64,000 bases of DNA from Candidatus Moanibacter sp. (GTDB lineage: Bacteria; Verrucomicrobiota; Verrucomicrobiia; Opitutales; UBA2987): assembly GCA_965226025.1 (NCBI GenBank), contig CBDDCD010000001.1:970104-1034103 (forward strand). The letters run 5' to 3'. Position numbers and translations under genes: made by a program. A model generated the notes under the pieces. It was not told the origin of the DNA and did no database searches. It worked only from the letters and a program-made list of their open reading frames with translations. Positions within the stretch are counted from its first letter, which is position 1. Each line of letters opens with the position of its first letter. Shown here piece by piece: positions 9,234 through 61,722 of this stretch.

Positions 9234-9818
9234 ATGGGTTTCAAATTCACACGCCTGAACATCCCGGAAGTGGTACTTATCGATGCCCAGCCGATCGAGG
9301 ACCATCGGGGATTCCTCGTGGAAACCTTTAAGGCCTCGGACTTCGAACGCTGCGGAATTTCGACGGATTTCGTTCAGGAGAACCACTCCGTCTCCCGGTT
9401 GTCGGTTATCAGAGGTCTACACTATCAGCTCTGCCCCATGCAGCAGGGGAAGCTAGTCCGCGTGATTCGGGGCGAACTCTTCGATGTTGCGGTTGATATC
9501 CGAATCAACTCACCAACCTACGGACAGTGGACGGGTGTTCCTCTTTCATCGAAAAGACATCAAGCTATTTGGGTGCCCCCCGGCTTCGCCCATGGGACCT
9601 GCAGCCTCACCGATCGTACAGAGGTTGTTTACATGCTGACCCGGGAATACAACCCGCAGTCGGAACGCGGATTTGCCTGGAACGATCCCAACCTCGACAT
9701 CCACTGGCCCGTGAAAGATCCAATCCTTTCTGAGAAGGACCGATTTCTTCCGCAATTCGGGGAGGTCGAGAACAATCTCTACTGGCACGGGAGCGAGGTC
9801 GCTACTTTCATCGGCTAG
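9234..9818 (+). CDS. rfbC: dTDP-4-dehydrorhamnose 3,5-epimerase
   Basis: DHRGFL.E, FVQENHSVS...IRGLHYQ, QGKLVRV..G..FDVAVDIR, PPGFAHG. Confidence 0.96.
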   Translation: MGFKFTRLNIPEVVLIDAQPIEDHRGFLVETFKASDFERCGISTDFVQENHSVSRLSVIRGLHYQLCPMQQGKLVRVIRGELFDVAVDIRINSPTYGQWTGVPLSSKRHQAIWVPPGFAHGTCSLTDRTEVVYMLTREYNPQSERGFAWNDPNLDIHWPVKDPILSEKDRFLPQFGEVENNLYWHGSEVATFIG

Positions 9819-9918
9819 GAATCTATCAGACTTCGAATTTCGAACCATCGATGAGGTTCGGATGGAACGGTGAGGGGTGTAAATCAGGACCGGGTTCATG
9901 GCGACAGATTCCTAGCCG

Positions 9919-10914
9919 ATGAAGGTACTTATCAGCGGAGCGGCCGGCTACATTGGATCGGTATTGGTGCCGCACTTGCTCTGCCAAGGCCACCGGGTCG
10001 TGGCAGTTGACCGCTTTCTCTTTGGCCGGGACACCCTGCCCCCGGCGTCGGACGATTTGACCATTCTAGAGAGAGACATTCGGTCGATAGATTCAGATCT
10101 CTTTACGTCTCAGAGTCTGATCGACGCCGTTATTGATCTGGCGGCCTTGTCCAACGATCCGGCAGGGGAAATCGATCCGGAGGTGACCCATTCGATCAAC
10201 CACCGAGCGCGGGTTCGAGTTGCTTCGATTGCCAAGTGTTCTGGGACTCCCAGATACATTCTGCCATCCTCCTGCAGCGTATACGGGTTTCAGAAAGGCA
10301 CGGTCGACGAGACTTCTGAACTCCGCCCCCTCACGACCTACGCAAAAGCGAATCGACAAGCAGAGAAGGATGTCCTCGCCCTCGCTAATCAGGAATTCTG
10401 TCCCACCATCCTTCGATTAGCGACCGTCTATGGCCTCTCACCGAGGATGCGTTTCGATCTCGCAGTCAACGGAATGGTGCGAGGCTTTTTTGTCGACGGA
10501 AGAATCCCAATATTACGGGAGGGAAGACAGTGGCGACCGTTTGTCCACGTCCTTGATGTCGCTCGTGCCTTTGAAATCATGTTATCAGCGGATAGGAATA
10601 CGATCGCCACAGAGATTTTCAATGTCGGATCGAACGACCAGAACCATCAAATTTTTGAACTCGCCGAACGGGTCTCCTCGGCAATTGGGCTACCCTTTGA
10701 ATTCGAATAGTACGGATCGCCGGATAATCGCTCTTACAAAGTATGCTTTGACAAAATCGCTCGCCAGACCGCTTTCACAACTCAACGGCGGGTAGAAGAT
10801 GGCGCCCGCGAAATATGGAGCGCCCTGAACGATAGCAAGCTGGATCCAGACCTCGCAGAAGCGATCACGGTCGACTGGTACCGGAAATTACTTGCCGATG
10901 GGGTTGAGCTCTAG
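9919..10914 (+). pseudogene. NAD-dependent nucleotide-sugar epimerase/dehydratase with an internal amber stop at 10708-10710
   Basis: GAAGYIG and YAKAN SDR motifs. After FEFE-TAG the same frame continues YGSPDNRSYKVCFDKI... for 68 codons to TAG at 10912-10914. Confidence 0.8.
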
Positions 10915-11009
10915 CCCGCCTTTCTCACCATATTTTCGAGCAAGGTTTTGCTGCAGTGCGTTTCTTCCGTTCTGTTGCTGCATGGCGGCCACAAAAGCGG
11001 GCTATTCTA

Positions 11010-12826
11010 GAGGCTGTCCCAAATCCGAGAGGATTTGGGTGGAAGCCTGATACCGATATCAATCTTCGTCACGTTATGTAGACCACGACATGCCTTCCGT
11101 CCTCGGTAGCTTACCTTTTATCCGTTATGCACCTTTCCAGCACCCTTCCTCTCGCTTTGAGTCGATAGTTCTCCCAAGGAAGCGCCTCTGACTCGATTCT
11201 TGGATCCCTATGCCGCCTGCGTTGCCTCTTTCTCATGTTCTTGCGCAAGTCTCTGCGCGATTTTCCATAGATTGTGGGACAGAACCGACCAGGCCACGCT
11301 AAGGTTACGGTTGTCAAAGCCTTTGCTGCGTATCTTGCCCCCGTGCCATCGGTTCTTGAGCACTCCGATCCGGCCTTCGGTGCTCCCTCGTCGTCGCTGC
11401 AACCGGACAAAGCGCGGCTCCTCCATCCGCTCCTTGAGCTCTTGTGGATTGCGGGGCGTAAGGGCGTCAAAAATCCCCTCTGCCTGGAGCCGCTTGCTGG
11501 CCGCCTTCGAGGCATAGCCCCGATCCCCACTGATCGCTTCGATCTTCTCCTCTAAAGCGAAGCCCTTTTGCCTCTCCAGACTTTCCCAAAGCTGCTTCAA
11601 TTCGCTCGGGGCCTGCCCCCCATACAGTTTCCAGTCCAACAGATATCCCTCTGCGCTCTCGCATAAATAAAGGGTGTTGCCAAACTCCACCTCCCGATCT
11701 GCCTTGCCTCGCACGATGACGTCAATCTCAGGTTCGTAGGCGCTCAGGATCTTCTCCTCATTCTTCACCTGCCGCCCCCCTATGATCCGTTCGTGCGCCT
11801 GTTTCATGACCTGCGGTATCTGCTCTAACATACCATCCATTCGCTCGATGATTCGGCTCGCCTTCTTCTCGGTGTAATCGCTTTGCATCCACATAGCTTC
11901 CAATAAGTCACGGTGGCGAAGGGCATGGCCCTCAATCTTCTTGAGCAATAGCTTCATCCGCCGCAGGATCCCTTTACGCGCTTTGCCCGCCTCCCGGCGC
12001 CGACGCGCATGCGTCATCTCCAGGCACCGTTTGTTCATCTCCCGAGCCAATCCCTTTGCTCCCTGGGGCATGCGCTGTTTCATTCCCGCCTGCCCGATCA
12101 GACTGATCGCCTTGAGCAGCGTTGCTCCCACATCCTTGAGCAAGACCCAGTCCACGGGCCAGTGGATGTTCGCTTCCAGGCAAGTGGCGTCGATCAGGCA
12201 TTCCCTCGTATCGATCGGCTTCTCTAATCCTGCCTCACCACAATGTTCAGCATTGCCCACCACCTCGGTCATCCTTGCATGCAGCTGTCTCAGATACGCT
12301 TCGTCGAAGAATTTCGAATCCCGTTCCAGACTGCTCTTCGATATTTTCCGGATCCCGTCTACCTCACGCACCCGGCAAAAATTAGCCAGAAGCTCACTGC
12401 GTCCCAACTCCTGCGACAGACAACGAAAGGATATCCCTCCGAGTAAATGACGCACCACCTCCACCCGCAGCGCTTTTATCGCTCTTAGAGCGCGTCGCTC
12501 CCGATCCTTCCCTCCCGCTTCATCCCATCCTTCCAAGGCTTTTACGATCGCCTCCCTTTCCAGCGAGGAGTCGATCAAAACCCGGTCAATCCGCTCCATT
12601 GTTTCCAGAAACACGGTGTAGTCTTTGCATCGAATGACTGGAGTTAGGGCTGGACGCAGGAAGCTTTGTACGGCAATATTTTTCATGAGAAGGGCGTGCT
12701 TTGTATTTGACTAACGCAAGCATAAGCGCCCTTTTTCGCCGGATCGAGCTTTTTGCAGCTCTATCCGGCCTTTTTTTTGCCCATAACTCATTAAAAATCA
12801 ATTGTTTCCACCACTGGGACGGGCTC
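11010..12826 (-). mobile_element. IS5-family insertion sequence, copy 1 (1817 bp)
   Basis: Terminal IRs GAGGCTGTCCCA / GAGCCCGTCCCA (10 of 12); near-identical to 30565-32380 and 59917-61722. Confidence 0.93.
11208..12686 (-). CDS. IS5-family DDE transposase (492 aa)
   Basis: IDATCLEANIHWPVD, KILSAYEP...RGKA..EVEFG, SGDRGY, RRGSTEGRIG. Confidence 0.92.
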   Translation of the reverse strand: MKNIAVQSFLRPALTPVIRCKDYTVFLETMERIDRVLIDSSLEREAIVKALEGWDEAGGKDRERRALRAIKALRVEVVRHLLGGISFRCLSQELGRSELLANFCRVREVDGIRKISKSSLERDSKFFDEAYLRQLHARMTEVVGNAEHCGEAGLEKPIDTRECLIDATCLEANIHWPVDWVLLKDVGATLLKAISLIGQAGMKQRMPQGAKGLAREMNKRCLEMTHARRRREAGKARKGILRRMKLLLKKIEGHALRHRDLLEAMWMQSDYTEKKASRIIERMDGMLEQIPQVMKQAHERIIGGRQVKNEEKILSAYEPEIDVIVRGKADREVEFGNTLYLCESAEGYLLDWKLYGGQAPSELKQLWESLERQKGFALEEKIEAISGDRGYASKAASKRLQAEGIFDALTPRNPQELKERMEEPRFVRLQRRRGSTEGRIGVLKNRWHGGKIRSKGFDNRNLSVAWSVLSHNLWKIAQRLAQEHEKEATQAA

Positions 12827-12959
12827 TATGCTATCTCAGTGCTCAACTCTTACCGAATCTACGTCTTTGATTACTGAATCCAGACGCTTTTGCTTGGCAT
12901 GGGAGATCGTGACCGTATGCTGCGTTGCACTAACTTACTAATCAGCGGGGTTCGAAAGA

Positions 12960-22000: not shown

Positions 22001-23818
22001 GTGGTCGCCTCATGCGGATTGTCATGGGCCTTGCTTCCTGCTGTTCTTTTCTTCAATCTGGCAAGCGCTGGTTACTTTTGGGAAACAGGGGGTATTCCAA
22101 ATAGTAAGGATTCAATGTTCGGGGCGAAGAAAGAGATCTACCTGTCCAATCTTTCGCTATCGCAGCCTGTCGAATCACTGACCCGCGACTTCGTCGAAGG
22201 CCGCTGGCAATTGATCGACTACGAAACGATGGAGGGATTGAAGGGGACCATGGTCAACGCCATGCCTGGCCAGGACTGCGGTCGACTGCAGCTCCTACTC
22301 AAGGTCGAAGGACCCCACAAAGTCTTTCTCGGAATCAACTATTCAAATTCCCGAGATTCCCGTAGGACCTCTCCGTGCCGGCTGGAAGTCAGGTTGAGCG
22401 GCGACTACGGTTATCGGCGAGTGGGAGCGGACTCAGGGACGGAACAAGAGAACAAGAGCTCAATAGATTCCGACATCGCGAATGATGTCCAGAGGTCGAT
22501 CCAGGAGTTTTACTGGAAGACGACGAACCTCAAGGGGAAGCTCCTGGAATTGCGCCAACCCAGGGACCCTTACAACAGTTCTTCCACAGGTCCCGTTGCA
22601 AATCTATCATACGTTAAGCTTATTCCCCTGAGCCCGGTAGAGCAGGAGACCTGGGAACAGGAAACGGCCAATGAGGATTCTCGCAAGCTGGGGTTTACTC
22701 TTGGAGCAAGCCAATTCTCTGATAACGCCGGCGGCAGCGACACCTTTCATCCCACCGACGAGGAGTGGTTCCGGGATGAGCTTGTTCCCATTCTCGACAC
22801 AGATTTCGGCCTGTTGATATTCGATGCTCTCTGCGGAGCTAGACGCAACTATCCCTCCAAAATCGGCCACTTGGGAAGGGAACCAGAGCCTTGGCAAGAC
22901 GATTGGCTGGATCCGCTCAAGACTTTCACGCGACTATGCCACCAGCGTGACTTGAAAATCTTTGCGGGGATGCGGATGACCAGTGCTCCCTTTCCAATGA
23001 GCCATACCAAGCACGATTGGGCAGCAGACTTTAGGGAGGATCTCCGATTCGCGAAGCGGGACCGGAATGGCTACCCCACGACAGGCCTCAGCATCGCCTT
23101 TCACGAAGTTCGTGAGTACTGGCTCAGTCTTCTCAGGGAGGCCCTTGAATATGAAGTCGACGGAATTCAGCTCCATCTGAACCGCTCCACGCCCTTCGTC
23201 ATGTACGAGGATCCGGTCGTGAATACTTTTCGCAGGCAGTTTGGCGAAGACCCCAGGGACCTTCCGGATCGTGATCCTCGATTCATCGCCCATTGCGCCG
23301 AGATTGTTACCCAGTTCGTCAGGGAAGCACGGGCCCTCGTCCATGAGAAGGAGCACCGCGAACTTGGAGTCACAGTCCATGGGAAACCCCACCGCCGAGA
23401 TTCCGATCAGTTGAACTTCAACCCCATTCGATACAATTGTGATGTTGAGGATTGGCTGCGGGAGGGATTGATTGACTACTTGATGCCCTCCCCCGCGATC
23501 GACCTCGGAACGCTGAAAAAGTGGAGACAGATCGGCGGAGAAAAGGTACATCTGTGGCCGAATCTTTCCTCCCCTGGCAGGTCACCCGAATCCTGCGTTG
23601 ATCTGGCGAAACAATACTACTTTGCCGGAGCGGATGGTTTCTCCGTCTGGGATGGGGAACGAAGATCGACTCGGACCAGCGAATTTGCCGCCCTCCAATG
23701 TCTCGGCCGTAAGAAACTGCTGGGGCGCATCGGTCAGGAAGGCCCAAGCTGGTACCGTCGAGTCCCACTGAGATATCTCATGGGATACTCCGTGGCAGAC
23801 TCTTTTCATGAATATTAG
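22001..23818 (+). CDS. Hypothetical protein with a putative family-10-like glycosyl hydrolase TIM-barrel region
   Basis: Possible signal peptide; C-terminal half has LSIAFHEVREYWL..LREALEYEVDGIQL, DVEDWLREGLIDYL and GADGFSVWD. Confidence 0.5.
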   Translation: MVASCGLSWALLPAVLFFNLASAGYFWETGGIPNSKDSMFGAKKEIYLSNLSLSQPVESLTRDFVEGRWQLIDYETMEGLKGTMVNAMPGQDCGRLQLLLKVEGPHKVFLGINYSNSRDSRRTSPCRLEVRLSGDYGYRRVGADSGTEQENKSSIDSDIANDVQRSIQEFYWKTTNLKGKLLELRQPRDPYNSSSTGPVANLSYVKLIPLSPVEQETWEQETANEDSRKLGFTLGASQFSDNAGGSDTFHPTDEEWFRDELVPILDTDFGLLIFDALCGARRNYPSKIGHLGREPEPWQDDWLDPLKTFTRLCHQRDLKIFAGMRMTSAPFPMSHTKHDWAADFREDLRFAKRDRNGYPTTGLSIAFHEVREYWLSLLREALEYEVDGIQLHLNRSTPFVMYEDPVVNTFRRQFGEDPRDLPDRDPRFIAHCAEIVTQFVREARALVHEKEHRELGVTVHGKPHRRDSDQLNFNPIRYNCDVEDWLREGLIDYLMPSPAIDLGTLKKWRQIGGEKVHLWPNLSSPGRSPESCVDLAKQYYFAGADGFSVWDGERRSTRTSEFAALQCLGRKKLLGRIGQEGPSWYRRVPLRYLMGYSVADSFHEY

Positions 23819-23905
23819 CCCGCTTTTCGTGGCCGGCAGGCGGCAACACGACGGGAGGAACGTTCAGCCGCAGTGCGATGCTCGAATTTTTGTGAGAAAA
23901 GCGGG

Positions 23906-23970
23906 TTAGGATTCTGTCGGACGAACCTCGTCACTTGCGAAGCAATCGAACGTCAAAGTCCGACTCCTAG
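23906..23970. repeat. Short palindromic dispersed repeat (same family as the IS110 target at 50775), unoccupied copy
   Basis: TTAGGATTCTGTCGGACGAACCTCGTCACTTGCGAAGCAATCGAACGTCAAAGTCCGACTCCTAG; its reverse complement aligns with 50775-50835 and the CTAG end overlaps the stop of the adjacent gene. Confidence 0.85.
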
Positions 23971-25175
23971 GGTCGCACCGGACTTCCGTCCGGAAGGCGA
24001 GTCTGAGTCCACTCCTCGACGGCGTCTCGGCAAGGATATTTGGCGGCGAGCTCTTCATCGATATCGATTCCGATACCTGGACTATCGTTAGGATACATAT
24101 ATCCCTTTCGGACTTCCGGAAGGCCAGGAAACATCTCGTAGACTAGATTATCGAAACGGCACCACTCCTGCACTCCAAAGTTGGGCGCCCAAAGGTCGAG
24201 GTGAAGCTGCGCGGCATGACCGACAGGTGAGACGTCTCCCGGACCGTGCCAAGCAGTACGAATGCCGTACATGTTGGCGAAGGCGGCGACGTTTCTGGCC
24301 GGAGTTATACCACCCATCTGGCTGACGTGCATGCGAATAAAGTCAATCAGACGCCCCTCGATAAGAGGCTGCCATTCGAGCGGGTGGTTGAAGAGTTCGC
24401 CCATAGCGATAGGAGTCGCGCATTGCTCCCTTAGGCGGTGAAACCATTGGATGTCTTCAGGAGCCAGTGGATCTTCAAGAAAGAAGAGTCTAAAGCGCTC
24501 GACCTCCTTGGCGAATCCGACCGCTTCTATCGGCCTGAGGCGCTCGTGAATATCGTGAAGAAGCTCGACTTCATCTCCCACGTCCTCACGGATTCGCTCG
24601 AATAGCTTCAGGTGGGTACGCATGTAATCCCCTGGATCAAAGTAGCTTCCCTCGGGTGCGCCTTCGGGCCTCAATTTGACATCGGCCGCAGCACCACCAT
24701 AGCCGCCCTGCTGCACACGGATATGTCGGTAGCCCTCTTCCATGAACTCCTTCACGCTTTCCACGACCTCCGCGGCCGTTCCTCCCCCGGCATGCGCGTA
24801 GCAAGCCGCAGCCTCCCTGCACTTTCCTCCCAAGAGCTGGTAGAGCGGCATTCCTGCCCGCTTCCCTTTAATGTCCCAGAGCGCCTGATCGACGCCGGAC
24901 AAAGCATTATTGAGGACCGGACCGTTCCGCCAGTAGGCGTTGACCATTCCCATTTGCCAGATCTCTTCAATTCGGTCCGTGTCACGACCGATAAGCAAAG
25001 GCTTCAGATGTTTTTCAACCGCCGCCACCACAGCGTGGAACCGCTGGGTAAAAGTGGCGCATCCCAACCCATAAAGACCCGGTTCAGAAGTTGTGACTTT
25101 TACAACGACAAGCCTTGAACCGGCCGGCTGTGTCGTGATCGCCTCAACGTTCTTGATAGTCGTGGTAGCGGCCAT
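23967..25175 (-). CDS. Enolase-superfamily acid-sugar dehydratase (RspA/ManD-like)
   Basis: GLGCATFTQR, NAYWRNGP, LWDIKGK, HDIHERL, FLEDP, GELF, RTAWHGPGD. Start placed at MAATTTI. Confidence 0.9.
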   Translation of the reverse strand: MAATTTIKNVEAITTQPAGSRLVVVKVTTSEPGLYGLGCATFTQRFHAVVAAVEKHLKPLLIGRDTDRIEEIWQMGMVNAYWRNGPVLNNALSGVDQALWDIKGKRAGMPLYQLLGGKCREAAACYAHAGGGTAAEVVESVKEFMEEGYRHIRVQQGGYGGAAADVKLRPEGAPEGSYFDPGDYMRTHLKLFERIREDVGDEVELLHDIHERLRPIEAVGFAKEVERFRLFFLEDPLAPEDIQWFHRLREQCATPIAMGELFNHPLEWQPLIEGRLIDFIRMHVSQMGGITPARNVAAFANMYGIRTAWHGPGDVSPVGHAAQLHLDLWAPNFGVQEWCRFDNLVYEMFPGLPEVRKGYMYPNDSPGIGIDIDEELAAKYPCRDAVEEWTQTRLPDGSPVRP

Positions 25176-25246
25176 GTCTATGATTGTTAAATTACCGTCC
25201 GGCGGAAAAAGCGAGCTCCCTCGAACTTCGGACTCTGTCACTCTTA

Positions 25247-30561: not shown

Positions 30562-30564
30562 CTA

Positions 30565-32380
30565 GAGGCTGTCCCAAATCCGAGAGGATTTGGGTGGAAG
30601 CCTGATACCGATATCAATCTTCGTCACGTTATGTAGACCACGACATGCCTTCCGTCCTCGGTAGCTTACCTTTTATCCGTTATGCACCTTTCCAGCACCC
30701 TTCCTCTCGCTTTGAGTCGATAGTTCTCCCAAGGAAGCGCCTCTGACTCGATTCTTGGATCCCTATGCCGCCTGCGTTGCCTCTTTCTCATGTTCTTGCG
30801 CAAGTCTCTGCGCGATTTTCCATAGATTGTGGGACAGAACCGACCAGGCCACGCTAAGGTTACGGTTGTCAAAGCCTTTGCTGCGTATCTTGCCCCCGTG
30901 CCATCGGTTCTTGAGCACTCCGATCCGGCCTTCGGTGCTCCCTCGTCGTCGCTGCAACCGGACAAAGCGCGGCTCCTCCATCCGCTCCTTGAGCTCTTGT
31001 GGATTGCGGGGCGTAAGGGCGTCAAAAATCCCCTCTGCCTGGAGCCGCTTGCTGGCCGCCTTCGAGGCATAGCCCCGATCCCCACTGATCGCTTCGATCT
31101 TCTCCTCTAAAGCGAAGCCCTTTTGCCTCTCCAGACTTTCCCAAAGCTGCTTCAATTCGCTCGGGGCCTGCCCCCCATACAGTTTCCAGTCCAACAGATA
31201 TCCCTCTGCGCTCTCGCATAAATAAAGGGTGTTGCCAAACTCCACCTCCCGATCTGCCTTGCCTCGCACGATGACGTCAATCTCAGGTTCGTAGGCGCTC
31301 AGGATCTTCTCCTCATTCTTCACCTGCCGCCCCCCTATGATCCGTTCGTGCGCCTGTTTCATGACCTGCGGTATCTGCTCTAACATACCATCCATTCGCT
31401 CGATGATTCGGCTCGCCTTCTTCTCGGTGTAATCGCTTTGCATCCACATAGCTTCCAATAAGTCACGGTGGCGAAGGGCATGGCCCTCAATCTTCTTGAG
31501 CAATAGCTTCATCCGCCGCAGGATCCCTTTACGCGCTTTGCCCGCCTCCCGGCGCCGACGCGCATGCGTCATCTCCAGGCACCGTTTGTTCATCTCCCGA
31601 GCCAATCCCTTTGCTCCCTGGGGCATGCGCTGTTTCATTCCCGCCTGCCGGATCAGACTGATCGCCTTGAGCAGCGTTGCTCCCACATCCTTGAGCAAGA
31701 CCCAGTCCACGGGCCAGTGGATGTTCGCTTCCAGGCAAGTGGCGTCGATCAGGCATTCCCTCGTATCGATCGGCTTCTCTAATCCTGCCTCACCACAATG
31801 TTCAGCATTGCCCACCACCTCGGTCATCCTTGCATGCAGCTGTCTCAGATACGCTTCGTCGAAGAATTTCGAATCCCGTTCCAGACTGCTCTTCGATATT
31901 TTCCGGATCCCGTCTACCTCACGCACCCGGCAAAAATTAGTCAGAAGCTCACTGCGTCCCAACTCCTGCGACAGACAACGAAAGGATATCCCTCCGAGTA
32001 AATGACGCACCACCTCCACCCGCAGCGCTTTTATCGCTCTTAGAGCGCGTCGCTCCCGATCCTTCCCTCCCGCTTCATCCCATCCTTCCAAGGCTTTTAC
32101 GATCGCCTCCCTTTCCAGCGAGGAGTCGATCAAAACCCGGTCAATCCGCTCCATTGTTTCCAGAAACACGGTGTAGTCTTTGCATCGAATGACTGGAGTT
32201 AGGGCTGGACGCAGGAAGCTTTGTACGGCAATATTTTTCATGAGAAGGGCGTGCTTTGTATTTGACTAACGCAAGCATAAGCGCCCTTTTTCGCCGGATC
32301 GAGCTTTTTGCAGCTCTATCCGGCCTTTTTTTGCCCATAACTCATTAAAAATCAATTGTTTCCACCACTGGGACGGGCTC
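30565..32380 (-). mobile_element. IS5-family insertion sequence, copy 2 (1816 bp)
   Basis: Same IRs; 6-bp direct repeat TAGCTA at 30559-30564 and 32381-32386; inserted at the stop codon of the upstream gene. Confidence 0.95.
30763..32241 (-). CDS. IS5-family DDE transposase (492 aa)
   Basis: Differs from copy 3 by one A-to-T residue (ELLTNFC). Confidence 0.92.
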   Translation of the reverse strand: MKNIAVQSFLRPALTPVIRCKDYTVFLETMERIDRVLIDSSLEREAIVKALEGWDEAGGKDRERRALRAIKALRVEVVRHLLGGISFRCLSQELGRSELLTNFCRVREVDGIRKISKSSLERDSKFFDEAYLRQLHARMTEVVGNAEHCGEAGLEKPIDTRECLIDATCLEANIHWPVDWVLLKDVGATLLKAISLIRQAGMKQRMPQGAKGLAREMNKRCLEMTHARRRREAGKARKGILRRMKLLLKKIEGHALRHRDLLEAMWMQSDYTEKKASRIIERMDGMLEQIPQVMKQAHERIIGGRQVKNEEKILSAYEPEIDVIVRGKADREVEFGNTLYLCESAEGYLLDWKLYGGQAPSELKQLWESLERQKGFALEEKIEAISGDRGYASKAASKRLQAEGIFDALTPRNPQELKERMEEPRFVRLQRRRGSTEGRIGVLKNRWHGGKIRSKGFDNRNLSVAWSVLSHNLWKIAQRLAQEHEKEATQAA

Positions 32381-32577
32381 TAGCTAGGGCATCTCTGCCG
32401 TAGGTAGTACTTCTAATAAGGCTTCGAGTAATAAGGGTACTAAACCCTAATTCGAAACTTCAATGAAGAAGCGGGTTTCCGGGCAACGATCTCTGTCGTT
32501 TAATAGGCCGAACTCGCAAATTTCGTCCTCATTCTCGTGCTCCTGCAGCTCAACGCTTCCACCTATCGCGCTTCGAC

Positions 32578-48195: not shown

Positions 48196-48825
48196 AAGCA
48201 ACAGATGTGGGACAAGTTTTGGGAGCGAGATTCGAGACAAGGGTACCAGGGTAATCGGAGCTACATTCTCAATTCGATAGACGGTATCCTCGCTGTGAAC
48301 CAGTTCGGTGGGACTTCGACATAAGCTCAGTGGAGTCGGTCACTGCATCCAGATTCGCAATTCAGCTGAGCTAACCTCGTACCGAACCTTGTTCCGAATC
48401 TTGTCCATTTGGATGCGGCCTCGCCTATCTAGCCCGGACATCTTACACACCTTGTCGCGAGACCAAGAGCGTCCGATTGGGTAGAGATGGTTGCAGTGCT
48501 GGTGGTCTGTTCACTGTGACTTGAGGTCGTCGGTTCCAATTGCTACCAGTGGATCGCTGTCCACCGTTCCGATGCTGTAAAATGTTGAAGTACATACGAC
48601 TACGGCGGGACAACAGACCGATCACCAAAGAATCGTGGAGTTCGCTCGCGAACGATCTGCCTATTCGGTTTTCCCGGCCCGTTCATCCCGCTCAAGCGAG
48701 GTCCACCATCTCTCAGTCCTGCGCTATATCTCTGATGGATAACATCCATGACCGAAGCCTTGAAATCCGAATCCAGTTCACCGTATTCTGCCCAGAATCG
48801 TGAAACACCCACTCATGACCCCTCG

Positions 48826-59546: not shown

Positions 59547-59916
59547 ATGCCTTCACCGTTGCAGGAGTATTTGTTTGATCTTCAAGGCTTCATTGCTCTG
59601 AAAAGCGCCGTATTCGCACGTGCTATCGTTACCACAACGATCAGTTTCGGTGTGGTCAGGTCAATATCCTGGTCGCTCTTACCGATACCGGGCCCGGCGA
59701 CGGAGCCACTATGGTCATCCCGGGTAGCCATAAATCAAATTTCATCCACCCGAAACTGGAGAGCGGACAGCAACTGTCAGGTTCTGCAGATGGAGTGGAA
59801 GGAGCGACTGAGGTCTACATGCAAGTAGGAGACGCTCTTCTCTTCGTCGACTGTCTTGCTCACGGTTCAGCTAAACGTCTCAACGAAGGGGAGAGGCGAA
59901 TCCTCATTCATAGGTA
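59547..59916 (+). pseudogene. PhyH-family dioxygenase remnant, 5' part (internal deletion, interrupted by IS5 copy 3)
   Basis: EYLFDLQGFIAL..AV joined out of frame to YRYHN..CGQVNILVALTD.GPGDGATMVIPGSHKSNF...HGS. Confidence 0.8.
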
Positions 59917-61722
59917 GAGGCTGTCCCAAATCCGAGAGGATTTGGGTGGAAGCCTGATACCGATATCAATCTTCGTCACGTTATGTAGACCACGACATGC
60001 CTTCCGTCCTCGGTAGCTTACCTTTTATCCGTTATGCACCTTTCCAGCACCCTTCCTCTCGCTTTGAGTCGATAGTTCTCCCAAGGAAGCGCCTCTGACT
60101 CGATTCTTGGATCCCTATGCCGCCTGCGTTGCCTCTTTCTCATGTTCTTGCGCAAGTCTCTGCGCGATTTTCCATAGATTGTGGGACAGAACCGACCAGG
60201 CCACGCTAAGGTTACGGTTGTCAAAGCCTTTGCTGCGTATCTTGCCCCCGTGCCATCGGTTCTTGAGCACTCCGATCCGGCCTTCGGTGCTCCCTCGTCG
60301 TCGCTGCAACCGGACAAAGCGCGGCTCCTCCATCCGCTCCTTGAGCTCTTGTGGATTGCGGGGCGTAAGGGCGTCAAAAATCCCCTCTGCCTGGAGCCGC
60401 TTGCTGGCCGCCTTCGAGGCATAGCCCCGATCCCCACTGATCGCTTCGATCTTCTCCTCTAAAGCGAAGCCCTTTTGCCTCTCCAGACTTTCCCAAAGCT
60501 GCTTCAATTCGCTCGGGGCCTGCCCCCCATACAGTTTCCAGTCCAACAGATATCCCTCTGCGCTCTCGCATAAATAAAGGGTGTTGCCAAACTCCACCTC
60601 CCGATCTGCCTTGCCTCGCACGATGACGTCAATCTCAGGTTCGTAGGCGCTCAGGATCTTCTCCTCATTCTTCACCTGCCGCCCCCCTATGATCCGTTCG
60701 TGCGCCTGTTTCATGACCTGCGGTATCTGCTCTAACATACCATCCATTCGCTCGATGATTCGGCTCGCCTTCTTCTCGGTGTAATCGCTTTGCATCCACA
60801 TAGCTTCCAATAAGTCACGGTGGCGAAGGGCATGGCCCTCAATCTTCTTGAGCAATAGCTTCATCCGCCGCAGGATCCCTTTACGCGCTTTGCCCGCCTC
60901 CCGGCGCCGACGCGCATGCGTCATCTCCAGGCACCGTTTGTTCATCTCCCGAGCCAATCCCTTTGCTCCCTGGGGCATGCGCTGTTTCATTCCCGCCTGC
61001 CGGATCAGACTGATCGCCTTGAGCAGCGTTGCTCCCACATCCTTGAGCAAGACCCAGTCCACGGGCCAGTGGATGTTCGCTTCCAGGCAAGTGGCGTCGA
61101 TCAGGCATTCCCTCGTATCGATCGGCTTCTCTAATCCTGCCTCACCACAATGTTCAGCATTGCCCACCACCTCGGTCATCCTTGCATGCAGCTGTCTCAG
61201 ATACGCTTCGTCGAAGAATTTCGAATCCCGTTCCAGACTGCTCTTCGATATTTTCCGGATCCCGTCTACCTCACGCACCCGGCAAAAATTAGCCAGAAGC
61301 TCACTGCGTCCCAACTCCTGCGACAGACAACGAAAGGATATCCCTCCGAGTAAATGACGCACCACCTCCACCCGCAGCGCTTTTATCGCTCTTAGAGCGC
61401 GTCGCTCCCGATCCTTCCCTCCCGCTTCATCCCATCCTTCCAAGGCTTTTACGATCGCCTCCCTTTCCAGCGAGGAGTCGATCAAAACCCGGTCAATCCG
61501 CTCCATTGTTTCCAGAAACACGGTGTAGTCTTTGCATCGAATGACTGGAGTTAGGGCTGGACGCAGGAAGCTTTGTACGGCAATATTTTTCATGAGAAGG
61601 GCGTGCTTTGTATTTGACTAACGCAAGCATAAGCGCCCTTTTTCGCCGGATCGAGCTTTTTGCAGCTCTATCCGGCCTTTTTTTTGCCCATAACTCATTG
61701 TTTCCACCACTGGGACGGGCTC
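59917..61722 (-). mobile_element. IS5-family insertion sequence, copy 3 (1806 bp)
   Basis: Same IRs; 6-bp direct repeat TAGGTA at 59911-59916 and 61723-61728; 11-bp deletion upstream of the transposase relative to copies 1 and 2. Confidence 0.95.
60115..61593 (-). CDS. IS5-family DDE transposase (492 aa)
   Basis: One residue different from each of the other two copies. Confidence 0.92.
   Translation of the reverse strand: MKNIAVQSFLRPALTPVIRCKDYTVFLETMERIDRVLIDSSLEREAIVKALEGWDEAGGKDRERRALRAIKALRVEVVRHLLGGISFRCLSQELGRSELLANFCRVREVDGIRKISKSSLERDSKFFDEAYLRQLHARMTEVVGNAEHCGEAGLEKPIDTRECLIDATCLEANIHWPVDWVLLKDVGATLLKAISLIRQAGMKQRMPQGAKGLAREMNKRCLEMTHARRRREAGKARKGILRRMKLLLKKIEGHALRHRDLLEAMWMQSDYTEKKASRIIERMDGMLEQIPQVMKQAHERIIGGRQVKNEEKILSAYEPEIDVIVRGKADREVEFGNTLYLCESAEGYLLDWKLYGGQAPSELKQLWESLERQKGFALEEKIEAISGDRGYASKAASKRLQAEGIFDALTPRNPQELKERMEEPRFVRLQRRRGSTEGRIGVLKNRWHGGKIRSKGFDNRNLSVAWSVLSHNLWKIAQRLAQEHEKEATQAA

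Follow-up and report, generated by a model that had tools for sequence, protein, structure and literature searches.

A decayed, probably IS1182-type miniature element between two convergent genes and an IS110-family element predicted to target the ends of its family by a bridge RNA

The 65-bp element at positions 23906–23970 of the window, by which we mean the whole 64,000-nucleotide stretch of DNA that was analyzed, is probably an old, damaged copy of a non-autonomous IS1182-type MITE whose terminal repeats would be recognized, by way of a bridge RNA, by an IS110 element resident in the same genome. An element of this kind is ordinary, well-understood selfish DNA. The case combines two known kinds of element and leaves the current understanding of both unchanged; the main value of the system is an unusually large natural set of candidate target sites.

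The element and its two arms are as follows.

23906–23970, minus strand: decayed 65-bp copy of a 69-bp MITE family, family A (nhmmer with the family model, E 1.3e-17, model positions 1–68)
23906–23922, plus strand: arm TTAGGATTCTGTCGGAC, with the CT core and the right half intact and with TAGGATT in place of TAGGAG-N in the left half
23958–23970, minus strand: arm with a 4-bp deletion (CTAGGAG-TCGGAC), in which the IS110 CT core is gone and the CTAG holds the stop codon of the neighboring gene

Read on the plus strand, the element is TTAGGATTCTGTCGGAC...GTCCGACTCCTAG and contains, at 23907–23920, the TAGGATT-CT-GTCGG that the earlier note had pointed out; the minus-strand sequence is CTAGGAG-TCGGAC TTTGACGT TCGATTGCTTCGCAAGT GACGAGGTTC GTCCGACAGAATCCTAA. 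Relative to the family A consensus it has three substitutions and a 4-bp deletion, and its plus-strand start is TTAG, not CTAG. The copy is 65 bp instead of the 69 bp of the family because the arm at the CTAG end lacks these 4 bp (CTAGGAG-TCGGAC); an identical arm deletion recurs in 11–13 arms genome-wide, and slippage between the GTC repeats of GTCTGTC would be a simple cause. Both inverted ends of the copy are damaged, and its fold energy is −11.6 kcal/mol, compared with −22.7 kcal/mol (z −7.6) for an intact family A copy. Within the window the 17-nt core TCGATTGCTTCGCAAGT is found only in this element (minus strand) and at 50800–50816, and CTGTCGGAC occurs four times against 0.62 expected, a count that none of 100 shuffles reached.

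The genome surveyed comprises 8.27 Mb in three contigs, and the family A profile was built from 109 clean 69-bp copies. The profile search identified 413 distinct loci of this 69-bp palindrome, 298 of them full length, spread over all three contigs; 232 copies are exactly 69 bp long and 12, including that at 23906–23970, are 65 bp. The consensus is CTAGGAGTCTGTCGGAC-35 nt-GTCCGACAGACTCCTAG, the ends of which form a 17-bp perfect inverted repeat, and subfamilies are distinguished by paired arm changes (T..A, G..C, and C..G). Divergence from the consensus is considerable (a median of 9 mismatches in 69 positions) and truncation is frequent. A 101-bp family (a profile search gives about 440 loci) and a 131-bp class have the arms of family A at their ends as well, and common ends combined with unrelated interiors are the look of non-autonomous transposon families. 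With more than 1,200 arm-like sites in the genome in addition to the 413 loci, the repeat is dispersed, as the earlier note had proposed. The exact arm motif has 474 matches in this genome, whereas none of the 400 other genomes sampled from the phylum has more than 39; it was found in 33 of the 401 sampled genomes, and reversed-pattern controls gave counts close to zero. Family A was not found in the two same-genus genomes searched, and one member of the bacterial family (G004) has copies that are about 78% similar.

The window also contains two copies of the 101-bp family.

9815–9914, minus strand: intact copy of the 101-bp family with GGAAT-type arms (nhmmer, E 1e-20)
54892–54985, minus strand: decayed copy of the 101-bp family (nhmmer with the 101-bp model within the window, a weak match at E 0.042, model positions 3–96)

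The partial arm that had been reported near 54894–54905 is there, as TCTGTCGGACTT, and can now be described as one end of the decayed 101-bp copy. Close to it, at 54855–54888 and right after the TAG stop of ORF 54005..54853, lies a 34-bp palindrome, CCTAGCCTGGAAATCTCACAAGATTTCCAGGCTA. Its CCTGGAAATCTC... motif stands beside at least 13 family A copies, so the palindrome probably belongs to a further family of very small repeats bounded by CTAG. About 170 sites (e.g., C1:438454–438640) carry a fourth repeat of about 180 bp with ends AAGAAAATGAAACTGAGATTTG / CAAATCTCAGTTTCATTTTCTT, which very often directly adjoins family A copies (about 130) and 101-bp copies, with mosaics in the order 69-bp element, CTAG, 180-bp element, 101-bp element.

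The flanks of every full family A copy were joined at a single CTAG and then searched against the genome for empty sites. The site at C1:538826–538894 is filled by family A, and on C2 a paralogue of 97.5% identity shows CTAG only once; the site at C3:2170307–2170375 is likewise filled and its 90%-identical paralogue has TTAG. In both pairs (n = 2) the filled site is 65 bp longer and has the tetranucleotide on either side, and these paralogous filled and empty sites confirm that the repeat is mobile, as had been suspected from the window. Because the element ends in G...C, a 4-bp duplication of CTAG is indistinguishable from a TA duplication within a CTAG target. An IS1182-type DDE transposase acting in trans would have inserted the family at CTAG or TTAG. 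Since the target is duplicated, the TAG stop codon at such a site is rebuilt, and copies can survive flush with the stop codons of genes. A frame of at least 100 codons is closed by 103 of 510 element ends, versus 7% for random TAGs, and CTAG is under-represented genome-wide (observed/expected 0.56). For annotation, this means that the short spacers after many genes in this genome are mobile-element debris and should not be taken as terminators or regulatory sites.

The element at 23906–23970 lies between two convergent genes and next to a second miniature element.

22001–23818, plus strand: GHL10-like gene, upstream and convergent (Pfam GHL10, 9.7e-07)
23815–23909, plus strand: family D miniature element, 95 bp, with ends CCCGCTTTT/AAAAGCGGG (nhmmer)
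23967–25241, minus strand: mandelate racemase/enolase-type gene, 424 aa (Pfam MR_MLE_C, 3.5e-46; MR_MLE_N, 3.1e-21)

The TAG stop of the racemase-like ORF lies inside the terminal CTAG of the family A copy at 23967–23970. The statement that the copies at 23906 and 50775 both begin at a CTAG on the TAG stop of a gene is correct for the overlap of CTAG and stop codon at the two loci; it fails for the plus-strand start of the copy at 23906, which is TTAG. Orthologues of the racemase-like gene in two same-genus genomes, G001 and G002 (82–83% identity), also stop at a CTAG, and in neither genome is the orthologue followed by a family A element, the DNA past the CTAG being unrelated. As the same-genus orthologues end at a bare CTAG, the stop-codon CTAG is older than the insertion of the element. 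On the other side, the TAG stop of the GHL10-like gene lies inside the TTAG that opens the family D element, which has TTAG on either flank and has the TTAG at 23906–23909 in common with the family A copy. The two convergent stop codons are 148 bp apart, and the spacer consists of the family D and family A elements and nothing else. That the flanks are TTAG/TTAG for family D and TTAG/CTAG for family A suggests that the family D element was the later arrival. With the 23815–23909 copy as the nhmmer query, we identified 66 family D copies genome-wide, nearly all of them TAG...CTAG-bounded, and the matches within the window are 23815–23909 and 10911–11004.

Over 23300–24700, contigs from four public sequencing runs have flanks identical to the window, and one of them, X5, runs from the upstream gene through the family D element into the family A copy, most of which it covers. 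None of the contigs of these four runs has a joint that skips the family D or the family A copy; they mostly end inside the repeats and are uninformative on polymorphism. A loose end with IS110 right-end letters at 23912 derives from a paralogous copy (three differences). The region 23300–24700 is letter-identical in the Logan contigs of the four runs (X5, X6, X7, and X10), which have four different organism labels and none of which is filed as a metagenome; of its words, 23% are present in a hydrothermal-vent metagenome. The bacterium could live in association with a host, or it could be a shared culture or contaminant.

We did not find an intact IS1182 transposase in this genome: the best match to NF033551 is a 55-bit C-terminal relic at C2:1487026 (cut-off 270), which adjoins a 101-bp element. 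The family may be immobile now; the lack of an intact transposase bears on its present activity and not on its origin. In a genome of the same order and another genus (G013:C447), inverted CTAGCAGCCTGTCGGACTT ends at a distance of 1630 bp enclose an IS1182 transposase ORF, which scores 235 bits against NF033551, or 319 bits together with its in-frame neighbors. These CTAGCAGCCTGTCGGACTT ends match the CTAGCAGTCTGTCGGAC subfamily of family A at 15 of 16 positions, the ends of other IS1182 elements in the order are of the GGAGGCTGTC type, and arm pairs about 1.62–1.66 kb apart are present in several other genomes of the phylum. The likeness between the ends of family A and those of IS1182 stops after about 19 nt, and the interiors are unlike. 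An autonomous IS with ends CAGCCTGTCGGACTT flanked by CTAG, which the earlier note had proposed looking for, thus exists as an IS1182-family element of another genome in the order, with no intact copy found in this genome. Judged by the similarity of the ends, the mobilizing enzyme would be an IS1182-type transposase.

Inverted arm pairs 0.4–3.5 kb apart in this genome, searched for an autonomous partner, have no recurrent length. The abundant 1821-bp ISNCY/IS5-like IS was considered as the partner and rejected, as its ends are unlike the arms and its target duplication is 6 bp. This IS (492-aa transposase; ends GAGGCTGTCCC / GAGCCCGTCCC; 6-bp TANNTA duplication) is present in about 220–240 nearly identical copies genome-wide, those in the window being at 11008–12828, 30563–32382, and 59915–61699. 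The IS load further includes about 55 IS1634-type and about 22 IS200-type copies, and the genome measures 8.27 Mb versus 2.6–2.7 Mb in two same-genus genomes. We speculate that the heavy load of IS and MITE copies is compatible with a recent change of lifestyle.

CTAG and YTAR targets are typical of IS5 and IS630 too, and the repeat could accordingly be a MITE of another CTAG-targeting family, either of the IS5 group or of IS630/Tc1-mariner with a TA duplication, instead of IS1182. The ends (GAGGCTGTCCC) of the about 220–240 ISNCY/IS5-like copies resemble the arms at GAG-N-CTGTC. Past CTGTC, however, they are unlike the arms, and the abundant IS duplicates 6 bp (TANNTA); no element of these groups with such ends was found among the arm pairs 0.4–3.5 kb apart, and the element with the end match at 15 of 16 positions has an ORF that scores as IS1182, which makes such an origin unlikely. 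The palindromic, intergenic, and high-copy nature of the repeat and its paired arm changes (the T..A, G..C, and C..G subfamilies) would also suit a REP or REPIN spread by a RAYT, like the REPs of E. coli and Pseudomonas targeted by IS621, ISPpu9, and ISPa11; a 340-aa protein that matches Y1_Tnp weakly has about 30 paralogues in the genome, and IS110 relatives classically target REPs (PMC11208160; PMC12288879). Nevertheless, the 26 Y1-like genes are at a median distance of 4.4 kb from the nearest arm compared with 3.8 kb for random positions, a single arm forms a hairpin of at most 4–5 bp, and the arms equal the terminal repeats of IS1182 elements, whose transposase is of the DDE type. Moreover, filled sites have two CTAG/TTAG where empty sites have one, a duplication that fits DDE transposition, whereas REPs, to our knowledge, make no target duplication. 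Taken together, these observations render spread by a RAYT very improbable.

Selection by the host is the remaining reading to be weighed, according to which the repeat is mainly a 3' mRNA stabilizer, a terminator, or a protein-binding site located behind genes, IS110 making only incidental use of it. The intact copy is indeed a strong hairpin (−22.7 kcal/mol, z −7.6), one third of the copies abut stop codons, and the arm changes are paired. Yet no T-run follows the hairpin, the copies are divergent and often truncated (median of 9 mismatches in 69), the repeat was not found in two same-genus genomes and one member of the bacterial family has only copies of about 78% similarity, and paralogous filled and empty sites exist; the position at stop codons is explained by the CTAG target together with selection against insertions within genes. 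Hence, we regard a mainly host-selected function as very unlikely, and a secondary effect of the element on transcripts is possible.

The second family A copy of the window, which like the first we read as an IS1182-type MITE, is occupied by an IS110-family element.

50775–50835, plus strand: larger part of a family A copy, from CTAG to GTCCGAC and the AG core copy, occupied by IS110
50836–53111, minus strand: IS110-family element, 2276 bp (junctions read directly; PF01548 match; NF033542 match at 4.6e-28, below the curated cut-off)
52915–52949, minus strand: predicted target-binding loop of the bridge RNA, with left guide CUUAGGAGGCA, right guide UUCCGACAGAA, and a small hairpin between them
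53112–53121, plus strand: last 10 bp of the occupied arm, consisting of the AG core copy and GCTCCTAG

The CTAG at 50775–50778 contains the TAG stop of an ABC-F type ORF (48748..50778), and the reconstructed target of this IS110 copy is CTAGGAGC-CT-GTCGGAC. The copy owes its length of 2276 bp to a nested IS200-type element; the 16 clean IS110 copies are 1712 bp, with at most 24 differences from the first copy. The nested element, at 51072–51639 in the 3' part of the IS110, has a Y1 transposase ORF (51130..51582) and is flanked by CCCCG.AGCTTGCT.CGGGG hairpins, and a second IS110 copy (C1:724243) bears a similar IS200-type insertion.

All 23 IS110 copies have the same junctions, CTAGGAG(T/G/C)-CT being joined to TATAGTAGCTCC at the left and CCTCAGTTTT to CT-GTCGGAC at the right. 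The IS110 copies are, as expected from the earlier note, at one position of the repeat arm and not at unrelated sequences. Eighteen of them lie in recognizable family A elements, in either arm, and the left end of the IS always points outward. The 5' non-coding region of the IS110 has a good fold (z −6.2), in which a stem closes an internal loop that contains both guides. A scan of 50700–53200 with Rfam at E up to 1 returned no family, so the bridge RNA was identified by eye and by folding. In IS621 the left guide has the sequence of the left target's top strand, and the right guide is the complement of the right target and its core (PMC11208160). Here, left guide CUUAGGAGGCA equals the top strand TAGGAG of the target, UAGGAGGCA matches TAGGAG-N-CT, and right guide UUCCGACAGAA is complementary to T-CT-GTCGGA, core included. 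On the strength of this match, the IS110 would recognize the terminal repeat of the MITE through its bridge RNA, the right guide pairing with T-CT-GTCGGA, and would undergo RNA-guided recombination at the CT core, the left end pointing outward each time. As the MITE terminal repeat is the target, the MITE family would offer hundreds of harmless landing sites. A protein search of public genome contigs, from which the window's own genome was possibly left out, gave no relatives of this IS110, and the only match in 120 genomes of the order has 35% identity.

The target preference can be read from 1,232 arm-like sites with an intact core, 22 of them scorable occupied sites and 1,210 unoccupied. 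The exact sequence TAGGAG-N-CT-GTCGGA is present in 21 of the 22 occupied sites versus 275 of the 1,210 unoccupied ones (odds ratio 71, p 1e-12). The sixth left-target position is G in all 22 occupied sites, and none of the 714 arms with A, T, or C at this position is occupied (p 4e-9). The base before the core is T in 19, G in 2, and C in 1 of the occupied sites where the guide has G, and this base is not discriminated by the IS110. The genome, therefore, provides a natural specificity profile of a bridge-RNA recombinase, in which 23 of more than 1,200 near-identical candidate sites were used, almost all of the used sites are exact guide matches, and the one tolerated mismatch adjoins the core. 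It also presents a case of layered parasitism: DDE-type MITEs sit on stop-codon CTAGs, and an RNA-guided IS lives in the ends of these MITEs.

For the copy at 23906–23970 as an IS110 target, we find that one arm is mismatched at the sixth left-target position and the other has no core. TAGGATT arms are unoccupied in 40 of 40 cases genome-wide, which taken alone gives p about 0.05. With a left-guide mismatch beside the core in one arm and the core missing from the other, the copy is probably unusable by the IS110; its predicted refractoriness rests on natural occupancy and on published IS621 mismatch data. The earlier description of the copy as a near-cognate of the occupied target overstates its value as a landing site, given the mismatch at the G position and the coreless second arm.

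A direct search of the bacterial family member G004, which belongs to a sister genus, gave an orthologue of the IS110 (79% identity) in at least 10 copies. Its left guide is UAGGAAUCA and its insertion site is AGGAAT-CT-GTCGGAC, an arm of the 101-bp type. Comparison of the G004 copy (L052 1150–1520, G004:C25) with 52790–53104 of the window (minus strand) revealed that two left-guide bases differ, GGAAU versus GGAGG, and that a compensatory pair change in G004 keeps the loop hairpin. All 408 TAGGAAT arms in the genome studied here are unoccupied. From the sequences compared, this looks like natural retargeting of an IS110 between two MITE families. Tentatively, we propose that sister lineages carry the same IS110 retargeted by two left-guide substitutions, to 101-bp arms with GGAAU in G004 and to 69-bp arms with GGAGG here, and that some of the unoccupied arms are perhaps former IS110 sites.

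Some arms have small insertions exactly at the IS110 crossover that bear IS110-end letters, in the forms GGAGG-CT-TATA-GTCGG (7 arms), N-CT-T-CT-G (4 arms), T-CT-TT-CT-G, and GGAG-TTTT-CT-G; the left end of the IS110, to be compared with the CT-TATA-GTCGG arms, begins CT-TATAGT. Examples are C1:1746119, C2:274623, C3:1431363–1431437 (both arms), C3:1120809, and, in G004, L056 and L060. There are 25 such arms, and 1000 controls with random IS ends gave a mean of 7.5 and a maximum of 23, a difference (p < 0.001) that is only suggestive because this control includes 4-nt substitution variants and T-rich strings. The insertions may be scars of imperfect IS110 loss, in which case natural loss of IS110 would not always be scarless. 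The TATA form is also found in G004 on GCAGC arms, which are not the target of its current IS110, so it possibly reflects an old end variant. In addition, one IS110 copy on G004:C84 (L054 about 1140–1170) is preceded by CTCAGTTTA-CT, which looks like the right end of another IS110 copy joined to the left end, as in a tandem or circle junction.

A literature search for IS1182, MITE, and CTAG in combination returned nothing relevant. IS1182-type MITEs with 4-bp repeats are already known from Paracoccus yeei, in the form of MITEPye1 and its parent ISPye18 (PMC11578231). The element family described here resembles MITEPye1/ISPye18 in being short, non-coding, intergenic, and hairpin-forming, with IS1182-like terminal inverted repeats and 4-bp flanking repeats (PMC11578231). 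It differs in that MITEPye1 is found one to three times per chromosome, whereas there are 413 loci here, of a 69-bp element, and about 440 of a sister family; in that this genome has no intact parent, the matching IS being in another genus; and in that the ends of family A serve as an IS110 target.

Insertion of IS110/IS1111 elements in REPs (IS621, ISPpu9, and ISPa11) or in Tn21-type inverted repeats (IS4321/IS5075) is likewise established. The IS110 of this genome is like IS621 of E. coli in its DEDD-type recombinase, its 5' non-coding RNA target loop with the same guide rule, and its CT core (PMC11208160; PMC11208158), and like IS621 it is inserted at one fixed position of a dispersed palindromic repeat. 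The target of IS621 is a RAYT-type REP and that of the present element the terminal inverted repeat of a DDE-type MITE; the right guide is about 9 nt here versus 4 in IS621; and, unlike in IS621, most of the occupied sites have a mismatch at the base before the core (guide G, target T). ISPpu9 of Pseudomonas putida and ISPa11 of P. aeruginosa are also multi-copy IS110/IS1111 elements with every copy in a genomic repeat family (PMC12288879; PMC11187229), in their case REPs, so that the class of repeat and the host phylum differ here. Finally, IS4321/IS5075 are members of the IS110/IS1111 superfamily that are sited in the terminal inverted repeat of another transposon, theirs being of Tn21 type, whereas the target here is a 69-bp MITE with hundreds of chromosomal copies and the element is of IS110 type, with the RNA upstream of the gene, rather than of IS1111 type as are IS4321/IS5075.
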